From the sequence record KJ190158: a stretch of DNA of 64,000 nt; one strand, written 5' to 3'. The DNA comes from Escherichia phage FFH2. The stretch's first letter is position 1, and every line of letters begins with the position of its first letter. The notes under the pieces were generated by a model. The model did no database searches and had not been told where the DNA came from. It saw only the letters and a program-made list of their open reading frames with translations. Both the position numbers and the translations under genes were made by a program. Of this stretch, positions 33,310-63,997 are shown piece by piece.

Positions 33310-33533
33310 TGAAAGTTAAAGTTTTAGATTCAAGCTTCTATATTGGTCAGGAGCCTTTAGTAGGAAAAGTGTTTACTGCTGTCCCTAACGAAGATTACCC
33401 TGACCTTTTAAAAATAAAAGGAGCAGATCTTATTGCCGCTGGTGCATCTCAGGAATGCTTTGACAGTCAGTGGACCTACAACTTTGCCCTAGGTGAGGAT
33501 GTAGAGGTAGTGGAGGACGATCATGAAGGTTAA
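33306..33533 (+). CDS. small acidic protein, paralogue group A (MKVKVLD ... GADLIAAGA ... VEVVEDD)
   Basis: Clear paralogue of ORFs 33523 and 29646. Confidence 0.5.
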   Translation: MMKVKVLDSSFYIGQEPLVGKVFTAVPNEDYPDLLKIKGADLIAAGASQECFDSQWTYNFALGEDVEVVEDDHEG

Positions 33534-33777
33534 AATTCTTGATTCTAACGTCTACTTGGGACAATCCTTCCTGAATGGAAAGGTCGTTCCTGCGGTATAC
33601 TTTGAAGGGTTGCCGTGGGATGATCCTGTGCGGCAACATCACAGTTATGTAGGCCACAACGTGGTGTTTATCTTGGGATCAGACCTGATCACCGCTGGTG
33701 CACCTGAATATTATTTCGGGGAAGAGTCCTACTATGCCTTTGGGGTAGGGTCAGATGCAGATATTGTAGAGCTGTGA
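33523..33777 (+). CDS. small acidic protein, paralogue group A (MKVKILD ... GSDLITAGA ... DIVEL)
   Basis: Tandem duplicate of ORF 33306. Confidence 0.5.
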   Translation: MKVKILDSNVYLGQSFLNGKVVPAVYFEGLPWDDPVRQHHSYVGHNVVFILGSDLITAGAPEYYFGEESYYAFGVGSDADIVEL

Positions 33778-33789
33778 TGGGTAACCGTT

Positions 33790-34188
33790 GTGAAAAATAA
33801 ACTGTTTAAAGTTACAATGAAAATTCGCGGGGCTTGGAGCGTAAAGCAAGGGCGTATTCCAGAATTTGAGAAAGACTTCTACGTAGTCTCCACCTCGGAG
33901 GAGGCTGCATGCTGGCAGGCTGGCTATGCCTATGCAAGAACCTGGTACGAAGGGTACCAGACTGGGGGCTATGACGGAGAAATTATCAGCAAGGGTGTAG
34001 AAGAAATTAATGTGTTGACAAGTGAAAAAGTTTTTGTTATAGTGCATCCAGATTCCAGAGTGAAGCATTACTGGAATGCCAGAACAAAAACTTGGACACC
34101 GTTTGCAGATTCTGCTACGCCACTTTTAAACCAGAAAGCTCTTGACTCTGCCCCAAGTTATGGGGTTGTTGAAGAAAAGCTAAACTGA
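33790..34188 (+). CDS. hypothetical protein, paralogue group B (HP.S...YW...WTP)
   Basis: FVIVHPDSRVKHYWNARTKTWTP parallels FVMRHPHSNIAYYWDVLNNEWTP in ORF 35995. Confidence 0.45.
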   Translation: MKNKLFKVTMKIRGAWSVKQGRIPEFEKDFYVVSTSEEAACWQAGYAYARTWYEGYQTGGYDGEIISKGVEEINVLTSEKVFVIVHPDSRVKHYWNARTKTWTPFADSATPLLNQKALDSAPSYGVVEEKLN

Positions 34189-34205
34189 AACAGTGAGGTG
34201 TCACC

Positions 34206-34496
34206 ATGATGGATTTAATTCTAAATATTGATAACGCAGGAGAGTTTAAAGACGATGGTGTAACAAGCATGGACAAACCCTGCTCTGCTAAGGTTGACTC
34301 AAAATGGACCTACAAGTTTGACGGAGAGATCTTCGCAAATGATGAGAAGGTTGTAGATGCTGCAGCCATTTTAAACGCTCTAGGGTACGACCCTGTGAAT
34401 TCTTTGATCAAGGATCCTGTTGAGTTTGCAGAGTATGTTCGAAAAATGGCAGATCTTGCTGTGGATATTTTAAAAACTATCGACAACAAGCTGTAA
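34206..34496 (+). CDS. hypothetical acidic protein (96 aa)
   Basis: Co-oriented ORF. Confidence 0.35.
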   Translation: MMDLILNIDNAGEFKDDGVTSMDKPCSAKVDSKWTYKFDGEIFANDEKVVDAAAILNALGYDPVNSLIKDPVEFAEYVRKMADLAVDILKTIDNKL

Positions 34497-34502
34497 AAAC
34501 TG

Positions 34503-34531
34503 TTGACACAACGCTTCAGATTTAGTATCAT
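34503..34531 (+). promoter_or_regulatory. sigma70-like promoter (TTGACA-17-TATCAT) for the HPF-like gene
   Basis: Read directly; followed by 5' UTR hairpin GAGGGtttggttCCCTC. Confidence 0.45.
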
Positions 34532-34578
34532 TGTTTTCAAAGAGGGTTTGGTTCCCTCTTCTTTAAAAGGAACACGTT

Positions 34579-34896
34579 ATGCAAATTGAAATCACTGGCA
34601 ACGTAGAAATCACTGAAGGTATGGTGTCTTTCATTTCCCACAAAATGTCTAAGCTGGAGCGTTTGCACCCCTCTGCCAACTATGCACGTGTGAGTGTAAA
34701 AGTTGAAAATGATCACCAGGAAGTTATGGCGCTCATTTTTGACAATTCTGGAAAAGAAGTTATTGCCAGGGCTAAAGGTAGTGATGCTTACGAGGCAACT
34801 GACCGTATGGTAGATGTTGCAGCACGTCAGCTGGCTAAATGCGGTGGAAAGAAAGGTAAGGGGAAAGGCAAAGTAAAGATTGACTTTGGAGAATGA
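34579..34896 (+). CDS. hpf: ribosome hibernation promoting factor / RaiA (YfiA) family protein
   Basis: MQIEITGNVEITEGM...KLERLH...VSVKVEN...GKEVIARAKGSDAYEATDRMVDVAARQLAK parallels bacterial HPF/YfiA (MQLNITG.NVEIT...KLE.....V.V.....HA...D.Y.AID...KL.RQL.K) as recalled. Confidence 0.75.
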   Translation: MQIEITGNVEITEGMVSFISHKMSKLERLHPSANYARVSVKVENDHQEVMALIFDNSGKEVIARAKGSDAYEATDRMVDVAARQLAKCGGKKGKGKGKVKIDFGE

Positions 34897-34905
34897 GGTG
34901 CTACA

Positions 34906-35007
34906 ATGGGCGTGATTAAGAAACTAGTCCCAAATGTAGAGATTGCATGCTTTGAAATTATGTTTGCAATCGCAGTTGTAGTTAATGTGTTAGGTTACGG
35001 CTATTAA
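34906..35007 (+). CDS. small hydrophobic peptide (33 aa)
   Basis: Below cutoff; GAGGTG SD; single transmembrane-like helix. Confidence 0.25.
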   Translation: MGVIKKLVPNVEIACFEIMFAIAVVVNVLGYGY

Positions 35008-35033
35008 TATCAAATAATTGAGGAGACCTCTAA

Positions 35034-35303
35034 ATGAAAATTAAATTATTCAAAACTGAGCTGGCAGACAAAAACTGTGGACTGGTTGAAGGCATGATTG
35101 TCGAAGCACGACCAGTTGACTATATGAAGGTGGTTCGTGATGCCCTGGGTGAAGGTTTTGATCTGATGGAGCCAGCTCTGCGAGAAGATGTTATCGAGAT
35201 GGCTAAAAAGCACACACCTGAAGGAATGGTGGTGTTTGTTGCACCAGGTAACGGAGAAGAGTTGATTGTAACTCCGGATGTGTATGAGATTGTAGAGGAA
35301 TAA
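35034..35303 (+). CDS. small acidic protein in array (MKIKLFK ... EIVEE)
   Basis: Similar termini to neighbouring small acidic ORFs. Confidence 0.4.
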   Translation: MKIKLFKTELADKNCGLVEGMIVEARPVDYMKVVRDALGEGFDLMEPALREDVIEMAKKHTPEGMVVFVAPGNGEELIVTPDVYEIVEE

Positions 35304-35394
35304 TCCTGCTTGGATTAGCATACTTCCTCGACAAGGAAGGTTTGTAATTATTTGTGGGAAAGGAATCCCAATCTCTTACCATAGGTGATACTAT

Positions 35395-35658
35395 ATGATT
35401 GTTTATTTTAAAACTTCAGGTGGATACCCTGATTCTCAAAGCTTGATCGGAAAAACGTGCACAGCATACTCACCTCTTGATGAGGAGGTAGGCGATATTC
35501 TACGAAATATGTATCGGATTGATCCCCAAGAAGCCTTTGATCAAAACCTTGTATTTGTCAAGGGCTCAGACATGAAGTCTTTGGGAGCATTCCCTGAAGC
35601 AGATGATGATGCCGTTTATTCGTTCATGACCCCTTTTGAAGCTATGGTTGTCGGGTGA
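35395..35658 (+). CDS. small acidic protein in array (YPDSQSLIGK ... VFVKGSDMKSLGA)
   Basis: Resembles ORF 29646 (YPSLVDCIGK ... VMVKGKDLLAAGA). Confidence 0.45.
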   Translation: MIVYFKTSGGYPDSQSLIGKTCTAYSPLDEEVGDILRNMYRIDPQEAFDQNLVFVKGSDMKSLGAFPEADDDAVYSFMTPFEAMVVG

Positions 35659-35995
35659 TAATATGAAAGTACGCTTTATTGGTGAAACAATTCCTGTGCA
35701 TCTCCGGTCGCCTGAAGATTCTGCAGATCTTGCATCTCAGAAGGCGAGAGGTTATGATAAGAAAGTAATCTCAACCGATGTAGAACTTGAGGCTACTAGT
35801 CTACCTGACCCTGCTGCATTCTTTAATCATTATGGATACTATTTCAGCAATCTGATGAATATCGGTGAGCTTGTGTTTATTAGTGGTGGAGAAATTGTTA
35901 GCAAGCTTGGCGGCGATCCGGATGTCTTTCATGAAACCTGTCCTTTTGCATTTGTGGTAGGTTCAGATGTGGAAGTTATTGAGGAGGTGCGGTAA
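35636..35995 (+). CDS. small acidic protein in array (119 aa)
   Basis: C-terminus VVGSDVEVIEEVR like group A tails. Confidence 0.4.
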   Translation: MKLWLSGDNMKVRFIGETIPVHLRSPEDSADLASQKARGYDKKVISTDVELEATSLPDPAAFFNHYGYYFSNLMNIGELVFISGGEIVSKLGGDPDVFHETCPFAFVVGSDVEVIEEVR

Positions 35996-36390
35996 TGGTA
36001 AGCCTATACCGTGTTGAGTATAGCTCAGATACTGTGTACAACGTAAGAAGCAAAGATCGCAGCGACAGAGTGCAAGAAATGTATGTTCTTGCCGACAGTC
36101 CGTTATCTGCAGCGTTCAAGGCAGGGGCTCTTGCATCTCGTTGGAAATTTGAAGGCGGATCTTTCTATGAAGAAACCCTTGAAGATTCTGTTGTTATTTC
36201 TTCTGTAGAGGTTTCAGATGACTACGAAGGGAAAAAGTTCGTAATGCGGCACCCACACAGCAACATTGCGTACTACTGGGATGTTCTGAACAACGAGTGG
36301 ACCCCAGATCTTCAGAAGGCTACTGTGCTAACACCGTTTTTGGCAGATAAGTTCCCACCAGAAGGTAATTTATCCGCACTGTTTCAGTAA
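35995..36390 (+). CDS. hypothetical protein, paralogue group B
   Basis: Paralogue of ORF 33790. Confidence 0.45.
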   Translation: MVSLYRVEYSSDTVYNVRSKDRSDRVQEMYVLADSPLSAAFKAGALASRWKFEGGSFYEETLEDSVVISSVEVSDDYEGKKFVMRHPHSNIAYYWDVLNNEWTPDLQKATVLTPFLADKFPPEGNLSALFQ

Positions 36391-36408
36391 TTTTCTTGCA
36401 CACAGGTG

Positions 36409-36437
36409 TTGACAACACCAACCCTGTGTGAAATAAT
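36409..36437 (+). promoter_or_regulatory. sigma70-like promoter (TTGACA-17-AATAAT)
   Basis: Read directly. Confidence 0.35.
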
Positions 36438-36466
36438 ACCTTCATCTTAACAAGACGGGAGACTGA

Positions 36467-36727
36467 TTGATGAAGATTAAACTGAAAAACCTTGAAATGG
36501 CAGAGATTCAGGATGGTGTTGATTTCCGCTCTAAAGATGGTGACATCTTAGAGGTAAATCTTCCAACCTACGAGCTGATTAAAGGTTTTGGCAACGTTCA
36601 GGAAGAGGATATTCCAGAAATTCTTATGATGTTGATTCTTGACGGAACTGTGTTTGTAGGTGAAGGTGAGAACGCTATTGCAATCCCAGGCCATTTTTAT
36701 GAAGTAGTTGACGAAGAGGTGCTGTAA
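36467..36727 (+). CDS. small acidic protein in array (MKIKLKN ... EVVDEEVL)
   Basis: Acidic C-terminus. Confidence 0.4.
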   Translation: MMKIKLKNLEMAEIQDGVDFRSKDGDILEVNLPTYELIKGFGNVQEEDIPEILMMLILDGTVFVGEGENAIAIPGHFYEVVDEEVL

Positions 36728-40392: not shown

Positions 40393-42805
40393 CACACAAT
40401 TAGCTGCCCGGCTAAAGTGCTGGAAGCACCTATAACACATCTTTCAACTAAATTTCCTACCACCACAATCACTTACCTCCCACACATGACTGTTTGCTTG
40501 TTTAGTGAGCAGTCATGCCTTGACATTCTTGCCTATCCTGATAAAATTAAGTTCTTCTCTTTTCTTTTACCGAGTAATTCGGGTTTTCTGTTCTCTTCGG
40601 TTTGAAGGGGTATAGAGATACACCTGAGTGAACAGGGTGAACAACCGAACATTTGGCTATGGCATTAGCATGGCGAAGCGGACGGGTGACGAAAGAGGGG
40701 CCGGAGGACACCAGTCACTGCCATATGATATATGGGTGATAACCTGAAGAGTCTGAATAAGTGTTTAAGTACCAGTCAGAGGAAAAGGTGAATGGTAGCC
40801 GAAGGGGGAGGGGGGTTTCTTGTATCTTTAATTTGTATATTATGTATACACTTGTAAACCAATCTCATCTGAATTTGTTTACCACACAAAGTGGATAGGG
40901 ACAAATATTACCTATTAAACTTGAATTATTTATAGAAATACCACAACACCACTTAAGTCTTTGATTTTACACACAAATCCTACAGATATTCACCCTCCAT
41001 ATTTAACATACCTGTAACATATTCCATACCCTACCTGACCGATCAATTCACCCAACTACATCCCCATATTTTCCCTGTCTGTACTACCCCTGCCCCGCCG
41101 GGAGTCCCGTCATATCTGGCTTTCCAGCAAATATCACACCCACAAATATCATTGCCTGAAGAGGGTTTCATCCCATAATACATGCCTTACCTGAAGAGCG
41201 CTTCATACACCACGTAAATTTTTTAATTGACCCCCTCCCCGCCGCCGGAGAGGTTGGCTTTTCCCACACAGACCTGAAGAGTCAGCCAGAAATATCTGAA
41301 CAGGTCCAGCTATGCCACGATTTTGTGCTTGTCCTACAGGAGTGCCTCCCTGTCAGGAGCCGGTAGCGACTGGAGTGCTGCCAGGCGGACGAAATGGGAA
41401 TCATTCTCATTCTTATAACAATTCTCAAATATCGAGGCAGTGAGGCAAATTAATAGGTGAGGCCGTTCACACAATGGCACAACATTTGCAACCTATCTTG
41501 TGGGAGTGAATGAGAATACCTATCATTGTGAGAATAGTTATCATTACGGGCAATTTAACATAATACCCATTATGCGCACCACTGGCGATCCATACAGGGA
41601 TTGATAACATGGGTTACTGTTTACACACATAACAATTATATTTCTTACTATTTGTGTGGGATATAGTTAGCAGCCGATAGATTAGATATTGACCTGTAGA
41701 CTTCCAACCGTCCAGACGTCTAAACGCCCACACAACAAGGGTTATACATACACAACTGAATGTAAACAGGGCCGCAAAAATGCTACCATACAAGCTTGTA
41801 AATTTTTCATGCAGCACTTGACAAAGAGGAGGAAAACTTGTCTGACACTTTAGACACAATAGTGACATAATATGACATAATGGTGACACTGAACATAATT
41901 GACATGCCTGACTGTTTACATAGCTAACTATTCATACAGAAATGATAAGCCATGCCATTCGTTTGCATGATAATAATTAACTTGTTTACAATAGATGACA
42001 TAATATAAAAGCAGGGCAACTATTAGAAGATCTATAGTTGCCTTGCTTGTTATGTCATGATTAACTAAATACAAGGCAACTATGATCTGATTAATAGTTT
42101 GCAGACAAACTATCACGGGGGTGATGGTTACTGCTTTTATATTATGTCGCGACTCCGTCGCGCCATGCCATTCGTTTGCATAGTTGCCTTATTGTTACAG
42201 ATAAAATAATTGTATTGTTAATTATTTCTTATCTTTCTCTTAGTCATCTAATGATTCCAGTCAGTATAGTAATGTACAGTAAACATTAGACGACTAAAGA
42301 TTTCTCTGTTTATTATAACTTACCGTGACAATTTCAGGCTGTTTACGAAAAATGTTGACACCTGGGCCGATTTATGTTATGCAGTTTACACGAATAATTA
42401 TTTTATGCAGGTATTGACTATTCCGTTATTCTATGGTTGGAATAAATACTTAGCAGACTATAGAATGGTGAGCGTACGTAAATTCTGAGATCTGGCGGCT
42501 ATAGTTATACTCGATTTTTCACGTAGAACACGCTTTTGTTAGTGTGTAAGTGTATGACTTATAAAGATTTTTAGTTGTTGACAAGATATTGAAGATGTGC
42601 ATCAGGTTAAATTTTGTGCAATAGCGGCATTACGTGCAATTTTGAGAGAGAAAACGGGTAAAAATGGCCTTGCTATCACACAATGAAAAATTATGCAATA
42701 GTTATTTTACATGTATGTTTGTACAGTGTGTGGGATTGATGGCTAGTCAATTATTCCACTTGCCAGGCTGGGCCGTTTGTGGTAGGAGAAATACAGACAA
42801 AAAGA

Positions 42806-63403: not shown

Positions 63404-63997
63404 ATGGTAATAAATAATACGACGAACACCTTCATCGTACCACCCACGCTTCACCATTTGGTGGTGCATGAGTATCCCAACTAAGTCACACAACGATGCA
63501 CCACCATTTTGTTGGTATGCATTAAGTAAAGAGTGTTTAGATCGGGTCCAGATGGCATGACCATCAAAAGAGTAGATAAACTTCTTACCCGTTGCTTCCC
63601 AGAATTTCTCCAGATCCTCTTTACGGCCCTTAAGACCAGGGTTGGCATCCCAAAGCGCATCGATTACCCTTTGTCCCAACTCTGGAGAGATGTCCAGCAT
63701 ATCTGCAACTTTATCTTTTTGTGCCCCGTACATAACCCCATACGTGATAGGTTTACCGTCGTTACGGGACACCTCTCTGCCTGCTACTTTTGTATATGCC
63801 TCAGCATTGTTTTGGTGTGCGTCTCCGTTACTTACAACATCATAATACAAGCCGTTGTCGAACTCAAAGGCACCCCAAGCCCCGATAAGCTGCTCTAAGT
63901 TGGACCCGTCAATACCGATCTCAAAGTATCCAGGAGGAACACCCCACAGACTACGCATCTCTTTACCCATAACCACTTTAGGAGATGGTTTAGGCAT
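63404..63997 (-). CDS. family A (T7-like) DNA polymerase, 5' exon fragment (motifs A and B); N-terminus lies beyond window end
   Basis: GIDGSNLEQLIGAWG...FDNGLYYDVVSNGDAH (motif A region) and RNDGKPITYGVMYGA (motif B) parallel T7 gp5 GLDASGLELRCLAHF...RDNAKTFIYGFLYGA as recalled. Confidence 0.75.

Follow-up and report, generated by a model that had tools for sequence, protein, structure and literature searches.

Locus and existing annotation

The window (the whole stretch of DNA analysed, 64,000 nt) represents an rV5-like E. coli phage of the genus Vequintavirus, i.e., rV5-like E. coli myoviruses with genomes of ~137 kb. It is collinear with Escherichia phage rV5 from rV5 position 63619, and rV5 features therefore share window coordinates. 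The region 33500–36500 displays 98–99.6 % identity to 119 phage records, nearly all of them from Vequintavirus. It contains an hpf-like gene with its own promoter and leader; the small genes around it form a long array on the same strand, interspersed with consensus sigma-70 promoters. Between the ATG of hpf and the preceding ORF, whose stop codon is at 34494–34496, lies an intergenic stretch of 82 nt. The following features are distinguished:

34503..34531, + strand: sigma-70-type promoter (rV5 P144), with -35 TTGACA (34503–34508), a 17-nt spacer and -10 TATCAT (34526–34531); 11/12 consensus match
34538..34539, + strand: predicted transcription start, 7–8 nt 3' of the -10 hexamer, deduced from promoter geometry only
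34540..34560, + strand: 5'-proximal stem-loop, AAGAGGG (34540–34546), loop TTTGGTT, CCCTCTT (34554–34560); 7 bp, dG -9.9 kcal/mol
34568..34571, + strand: Shine-Dalgarno sequence AGGA, 7 nt 5' of the ATG, read from the sequence
34579..34896, + strand: hpf-like gene (rV5 ORF144/gp139), ATG start, 105 aa plus stop codon
34579..34839, + strand: part of the hpf ORF preceding the tail; AlphaFold2-predicted strands at residues 2–7, 33–42, 47–55 and 60–67, helices at 13–29 and 70–89
34840..34893, + strand: Lys/Gly-rich tail, residues 88–105 (CGGKKGKGKGKVKIDFGE), net charge +4; AlphaFold2-predicted disorder at residues 91–105
34906..35007, + strand: rV5 ORF145, a hydrophobic ORF of 33 aa (MGVIKKLVPNVEIACFEIMFAIAVVVNVLGYGY), 9 nt 3' of the hpf stop codon
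35034–35303: rV5 ORF146, an ORF of 89 aa, carrying the name 'sigma 54 modulation factor' in a number of Vequintavirus entries in GenBank

In GenBank records DQ832317 and NC_011041 the hpf ORF is designated ORF144/gp139 and described as 'sigma 54 modulation factor', later as 'ribosome-associated translation inhibitor RaiA'; both records also carry a 'Sigma70-type promoter; P144' at 34503–34531. Since these records annotate them, the ORF and its promoter, as well as the assignment to a family, were already public. The rV5 gene product (ABI79209, YP_002003641) is encoded by the same gene at the same locus, with P144 and collinear neighbours, shares 98 % protein identity and differs from the common variant by two substitutions only (F52L, K64R). 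The preliminary description of this DNA had presented the hpf homologue and its promoter as potentially new; they are correctly recognized but not new, being preceded by the GenBank entries (ORF144, P144) and by the experimental paper of Mizuno et al. 2019. What the present analysis adds is the combination of lost basic residues, a polycationic tail and purifying selection, together with the narrow distribution of the gene, its low identity to cellular HPFs and the comparison of the leader hairpin among relatives.

In some records, hpf itself appears as 'ATP-dependent protease La type I'. Furthermore, 18 records 'UNVERIFIED: Campylobacter phage' (MG0656xx, host C. jejuni) contain Vequintavirus genomes with 93–99.7 % identity to the window and are probably mislabelled or contaminant assemblies.

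Promoter and leader of hpf

Between 28 and 42 kb, six matches to the sigma-70 consensus of at least 11/12 are present on the + strand and none on the - strand, with 0.2 expected per strand from dinucleotide shuffles (maximum of 3 in 200 shuffles). The promoter match exceeds chance, and the dedicated TTGACA-17-TATCAT promoter proposed beforehand is identical with P144 of rV5. Neither the sequence nor the position of the -35 hexamer varies among 12 genus variants and a sister clade with 63 % identity (locus L002, protein P0004), and the spacing and the -10 hexamer (TATCAT or TATTAT) are conserved across the 12 Vequintavirus variants. In the sister clade, the upstream region comprises the identical block aaactgTTGACAca, followed by an extended -10-like TGcAATTAT. 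An experimentally mapped transcription start was not found in the literature searched. Around the Shine-Dalgarno sequence, AAAAGGA is nearly invariant in the genus alignments.

The stem-loop in the 5' UTR, likewise noted before, is present as a 7-bp hairpin starting ~2 nt into the predicted mRNA. It is thermodynamically unexceptional: compared to shuffled sequences, folding of the leader yields z = -0.87 (40 of 200 shuffles at least as stable), and z = 0.01 if the start of the ORF is included. The hairpin occurs in all 12 of 12 Vequintavirus variants, with dG values between -5.6 and -11.7 kcal/mol and 3–10 nt in the loop. At one stem pair, phages YP-6 and SYGMH1 carry a compensatory change from G-C to A-U, while HeinrichReichert and A147 have one-sided changes leading to a mismatch at the same pair (intermediates). 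In the covariation count, 95 % of cells are paired and one pair is compensatory, a score equally high in 96 of 500 column shuffles; the comparative support that the alignment appears to lend to the hairpin is weak. The sister clade lacks the hairpin and has a short leader. Judged from these alignments, the stem-loop is real and locally maintained within the genus, with a putative role.

Stabiliser hairpins at mRNA 5' termini, e.g., that of the ompA leader, impede 5'-end-dependent decay by RNase E. The hpf leader hairpin shares the geometry of such ompA-like elements and, by analogy, may stabilise the mRNA.

Two other readings of the hairpin were rejected. As terminator of the upstream gene it would be misplaced, sitting 3' of the -10 hexamer, with a poor U-tract and without a call in the terminator scan. 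As part of a repeated mobile cassette of promoter plus hairpin, comparable to the promoter-early stem-loops of T4, it should recur elsewhere; all TTGACA-N16-18-TAnnnT sites in the window were collected and the sequence 3' of each + strand site folded, revealing no common hairpin or extended motif. Rfam, searched at gathering thresholds, yielded no match to a described RNA family anywhere in the window.

Family membership and predicted fold

The phage protein matches Pfam PF02482 (Ribosomal_S30AE) with 48.2 bits (cut-off 23.7) across residues 3–88, corresponding to profile positions 1–83 of 88, and TIGR00741 ('HPF/YfiA family') with 46.0 bits (cut-off 40.9). Its alignment with E. coli HPF (2rql) covers residues 1–89 (E 5e-12). 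Membership in the HPF/YfiA family and full-length alignment with bacterial HPF, both claimed in the preliminary description, are borne out by these profile scores and by the end-to-end match to E. coli HPF; predicted fold and public annotation agree. Scores with the equivalog models remain far below the respective cut-offs, amounting to 55.5 bits (cut-off 125) for short HPF (NCBIfam NF007780/PRK10470) and 17.4 bits (cut-off 158) for RaiA/YfiA (NF007654). The core (55.5 vs 17.4 bits) is HPF-like rather than RaiA-like, and the assignment holds at superfamily level, the protein representing an equivalog of neither E. coli HPF nor RaiA.

Long HPF of the Gram-positive type has a C-terminal dimerisation domain after a linker. 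The phage protein does not conform to this type, as it comprises 105 aa versus ~180–190 aa, has PF02482 as its sole Pfam match and is predicted to be disordered at residues 91–105.

An AlphaFold2 model built from a 22-sequence alignment reached a mean pLDDT of 82.5 and a pTM of 0.71. With this predicted structure as query, the best 36 PDB matches in Foldseek are all HPF/YfiA/pY chains, the best being HPF of V. cholerae (4hei; TM 0.93, rmsd 1.1 A); HPF of E. coli in the hibernating ribosome (6h4n_x) is matched with TM 0.89 and 41 % identity. The model thus points to membership in the HPF/YfiA fold.

Ribosome-contacting residues and C-terminal tail

The contacts considered here are those described by cryo-EM of Gram-negative HPF and YfiA (bioRxiv 10.1101/2025.10.07.680626). 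They comprise the 16S rRNA-contacting basic track of helix alpha2 (K80, R83, K87, K89 and K91), with R83 contacting m4C1402, as well as T53 and H55, reported to contact m2G966 and uS9 (bioRxiv 10.1101/2025.10.07.680626). The phage proteins were aligned with E. coli HPF and YfiA (checked against PDB chains) and 19 diverse cellular representatives; R17, K80 and K89 are given in E. coli numbering.

All family-invariant residues (T12, K22, G58, A63, D69, Y71 and D75) are kept in the phage protein, as are the contact residues R83, Q84, K87, K91, K25 (E. coli K26), R28 (Q29) and E60. Three basic residues are replaced (R17 by V, K80 by V and K89 by G) at positions each occupied by Lys or Arg in 15 of the 19 cellular representatives, and T53 and H55 are replaced by L and F, respectively. 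The sister clade lacks the same three basic residues (V16, T80, S89). Being common to both phage clades, the losses of R17, K80 and K89 are ancient and fixed, not sporadic. The conserved basic ribosome-binding surface, whose lack the preliminary description had regarded as an argument against its assignment, is accordingly retained in part: R83, K87, K91, K22/K25 and R28 persist, whereas both clades have other residues in place of R17 and of the reported rRNA contacts K80 and K89.

The Lys/Gly-rich C-terminal tail noted from the sequence was found as described (residues 88–105, net charge +4). It exceeds the tail of E. coli HPF by 10 residues and is more basic (+4 vs +2 for HKDKLKQH), and the pI of the whole protein is 8.7 versus 6.5. 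Among the intact Vequintavirus variants extracted, the tail is near-invariant up to residue 97; that of the sister clade has a different sequence, which is also basic.

Compared with short HPF (YhbH; E. coli 2rql, 6h4n/6h58; V. cholerae 4hei), the phage protein keeps K22/K25, E43, D69, Y71, D75, R83, Q84, K87 and K91. It differs in a beta1-alpha1 loop that is one residue shorter in most variants, in the exchange of R17, K80 and K89 for V, V and G and of T53 and H55 for L and F, and in the tail extended by 10 residues. Host hpf is located in the rpoN operon, whereas phage hpf has a constitutive-type sigma-70 promoter. With YfiA/RaiA (protein Y; E. coli 1n3g, 4v8i), the phage protein has in common the fold, the basic alpha2 positions 83, 87 and 91 and a C-terminal extension beyond HPF length; in YfiA, this extension blocks RMF and leads to inactive 70S monomers. 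The tails themselves are unrelated, the polylysine/glycine tail of the phage protein (+4) contrasting with the mixed-then-acidic one of YfiA (net charge -3).

HeinrichReichert and ~18 other records encode an extra Asn (ITGNNVEIT) and thus a protein of 106 aa. In these alleles the length of the E. coli HPF beta1-alpha1 loop is restored, and identity to E. coli HPF reaches up to 44 %.

Distribution and selection

The hpf gene is present at the same locus and with its promoter in all of the ~116 Vequintavirus records, and 116–119 phage records contain it at 90–99 % identity. Searching 50,697 phage records with E. coli HPF (tblastn) yielded matches in 128 records, ~116 of which belong to Vequintavirus; the remainder comprises a few Listeria, Enterococcus, Xanthomonas and unnamed phages as well as one misplaced Salmonella chromosome contig. 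The latter, an apparent 'Salmonella phage' homologue with <60 % identity, was rejected: AGRM01000002.1 is a 691-kb chromosome contig of Salmonella enterica subsp. houtenae in INPHARED, and the match is the bacterial host's own hpf (94.7 % identity to E. coli HPF).

A word-indexed protein search retrieved close relatives only; when 1.84 billion cluster representatives were scanned exhaustively with HMMER, a single close relative emerged, P0004, with 64 % identity. Cellular HPFs follow in that scan at 30–45 % identity (best E-value 3.6e-07), and identity of the phage HPF to E. coli HPF is 35–44 %. A scan of IMG/VR returned 2 loci only. The sister clade represented by P0004 consists of uncultured contigs only, up to 137 kb in length and with syntenic small genes. 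Within the collections searched, the gene is essentially confined to one phage genus and its uncultured sister clade, and it constitutes a long-diverged phage lineage rather than a recent capture.

HPF-like proteins of other phages, i.e., of Cronobacter phage GAP32 (AFC21633), phrog_8990 and a few Listeria, Enterococcus and Xanthomonas phages, likewise belong to PF02482 and to virulent or large phages. They fall into a different PHROG, the rV5-type protein matching phrog_12469 with E 3e-70 versus 2e-06 for phrog_8990. Since GAP32 HPF was placed with Firmicutes-like sequences (Mizuno et al., PMC6375957), the other phage HPFs appear to be independent acquisitions.

Pairwise comparison (Nei-Gojobori) of the window copy with 11 other Vequintavirus copies yielded dN/dS ratios of 0.05–0.18 at dS values up to 0.69, which indicates that hpf, retained in more than 110 phage genomes, is under strong purifying selection. 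In Escherichia phage YP-6 (OQ376695), codon 4 of hpf is changed from GAA to TAA (positions 679–690 of locus L009), and the record annotates a truncated CDS from Met15. This stop may reflect a sequencing error or a natural null allele; in the latter case, hpf may be dispensable in the laboratory. Frameshifted tail variants are present among metagenomic copies (P0003).

Functional interpretation

Short HPF converts the 90S dimers induced by RMF to 100S. No such promotion of 100S was seen with the rV5 protein (PMC6375957), which Mizuno et al. 2019 (Nat Commun 10:752, PMC6375957) listed as ABI79209 among virus-encoded ribosome-associated proteins. In that study, coliphage homologues clustered amidst gammaproteobacterial HPF sequences, and viral HPF was proposed to possibly compete with the cellular homologue, thereby blocking dimer formation. 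Upon expression from pBAD24 in E. coli NM522 and harvest at an OD600 of 1, i.e., at the end of exponential phase, rV5 HPF was present in the crude extract and undetected in the 70S/100S fractions, and the 100S peak was unaltered (PMC6375957). Ribosomes had been pelleted through a cushion of 500 mM NH4Cl, and salt stripping as well as growth phase were considered by the authors themselves as possible reasons for the negative result (PMC6375957). In view of the high-salt wash, the negative ribosome-association result is weak. As the only published experiment on this protein, it leaves modulation of host translation by the phage, considered in the preliminary description, a hypothesis. Five gut isolates of the rV5-like type were later noted to carry hpf as well (Mathieu et al. 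2020, PMC6969025); the literature searched contained no functional follow-up on phage HPF after 2019, including low-salt or infection-context data.

The evidence is best explained, by a slight inclination on our part, by a diverged homologue of short gammaproteobacterial HPF that parks idle host ribosomes and binds them more weakly and in a more salt-labile manner than host HPF. Host RNA polymerase would transcribe hpf from P144 soon after infection, into an mRNA whose leader would open with the possibly stabilising stem-loop. In vacant host ribosomes, the core of the protein would enter the mRNA/tRNA channel that runs between the head and the body of the 30S subunit and bind there via the retained R83, K87, K22/K25 and R28, as in the cellular relatives, while the flexible polylysine tail could provide extra, non-specific affinity for rRNA. 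As an outcome, idle host ribosomes would be held as inactive, nuclease-protected 70S during takeover or in starved hosts. With K80, K89 and R17 lost, the phage protein probably binds less tightly than host HPF and is more easily stripped by salt, which would explain the lack of recovery after the wash with 500 mM NH4Cl and reconcile family membership with the negative result.

The same losses fit weak and easily displaced binding of a different purpose, namely that of an anti-hibernation competitor. Such a protein would occupy the HPF/YfiA site weakly and reversibly, with its basic tail reaching the RMF site as the tail of YfiA does; host RMF/HPF could then not lock 100S, and ribosomes of starved or stationary hosts would stay available for phage mRNAs. 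Competition with cellular HPF preventing dimers is what Mizuno et al. had proposed, salt-sensitive binding would also fit their negative result (PMC6375957), and the tail, 10 residues longer than in E. coli HPF, is nearing the length of that of YfiA, which blocks RMF binding by its C-terminus (PMC7764885). However, the 100S peak was unaltered when the phage protein was expressed (PMC6375957), any occupant of the decoding channel blocks translation too, the phage tail has no sequence in common with that of YfiA, and the core scores 55.5 bits with the HPF model versus 17.4 with the RaiA model. Competition is regarded as the main rival, though an unlikely one.

One may also speculate, with considerable doubt, that the phage protein is a weakened 'placeholder', deliberately so, in which a flexible polylysine tail was gained at the expense of the contacts by K80/K89 (and R17). 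Loosely attached to vacant ribosomes, the protein would keep off host RMF/HPF, and perhaps also ribosome-targeting nucleases or defence effectors, and would readily give way to initiation factors. If this were true, the protein would be a viral anti-hibernation or ribosome-guarding factor and not a hibernation factor. Genes by which phages act on host ribosomes attract general interest, and the loss of R17/K80/K89 together with a polycationic tail and purifying selection provides a concrete and cheap hypothesis for revisiting ribosome binding.

Rather improbably, the HPF scaffold could have been neofunctionalised away from the ribosomal decoding channel to bind another RNA or protein, e.g., as decoy or inhibitor of a host factor or of a defence system recognising HPF-like proteins or ribosomes. 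Ribosome association was indeed undetected (PMC6375957), identity to cellular HPFs is only 30–45 % (best E-value 3.6e-07 among 1.84 billion representatives), and several conserved contacts are replaced in both clades under purifying selection that is still strong. On the other hand, the most conserved ribosome-contacting arginine, R83, is kept along with Q84, K87, K22, K25 and the DxY...D motif, nothing found here suggests another partner, and the high-salt wash weakens the negative result.

A neutral passenger or decaying host-derived gene without a role in infection might account for the nonsense codon 4 of YP-6, the frameshifted tails among P0003 and the lack of a phenotype on expression (PMC6375957). 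In view of the dN/dS values (0.05–0.18 at dS up to 0.69 within the genus) this is very unlikely; moreover, all of the ~116 Vequintavirus records, as well as the sister clade with its 63 %-identical protein, maintain the gene and its promoter at the same locus. The name 'sigma-54 modulation factor' predates the recognition that the PF02482 family binds ribosomes. Action on transcription as such a factor is suggested by the legacy GenBank annotation only and can practically be dismissed, as the structural neighbours retrieved by Foldseek are all ribosome-bound hibernation factors.

Adjacent genes and non-coding region

ORF145, which the sister clade lacks, probably shares a transcript with hpf. 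The end of hpf and the start of ORF145 are overlapped by a promoter-like TTGACT-16-TACAAT with extended TG (34880–34907). ORF146 was considered as a second HPF paralogue and rejected: it has neither a match to PF02482 nor similarity to the HPF ORF, so its name in the GenBank records represents an annotation carry-over error.

Further downstream, the ~2.6 kb between 40400 and 43000 have no CDS annotated in rV5 (longest ORF 91 aa) and contain neither tRNA genes nor a match to Rfam. This region separates two convergent gene arrays, on the + strand at ~3–40.4 kb and on the - strand at 43–64 kb. Consensus promoters with TTGACA are found across the window (1–64000) on the + strand at ~4.5–40.5 kb and on the - strand at ~43–62.4 kb, a strong strand switch that mirrors the direction of the genes flanking the non-coding region. 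The latter harbours, besides other repeats, a perfect 18-nt inverted repeat (41997–42014/42131–42148) and an exact 20-nt direct repeat (GCCATGCCATTCGTTTGCAT) at 41949 and 42162.
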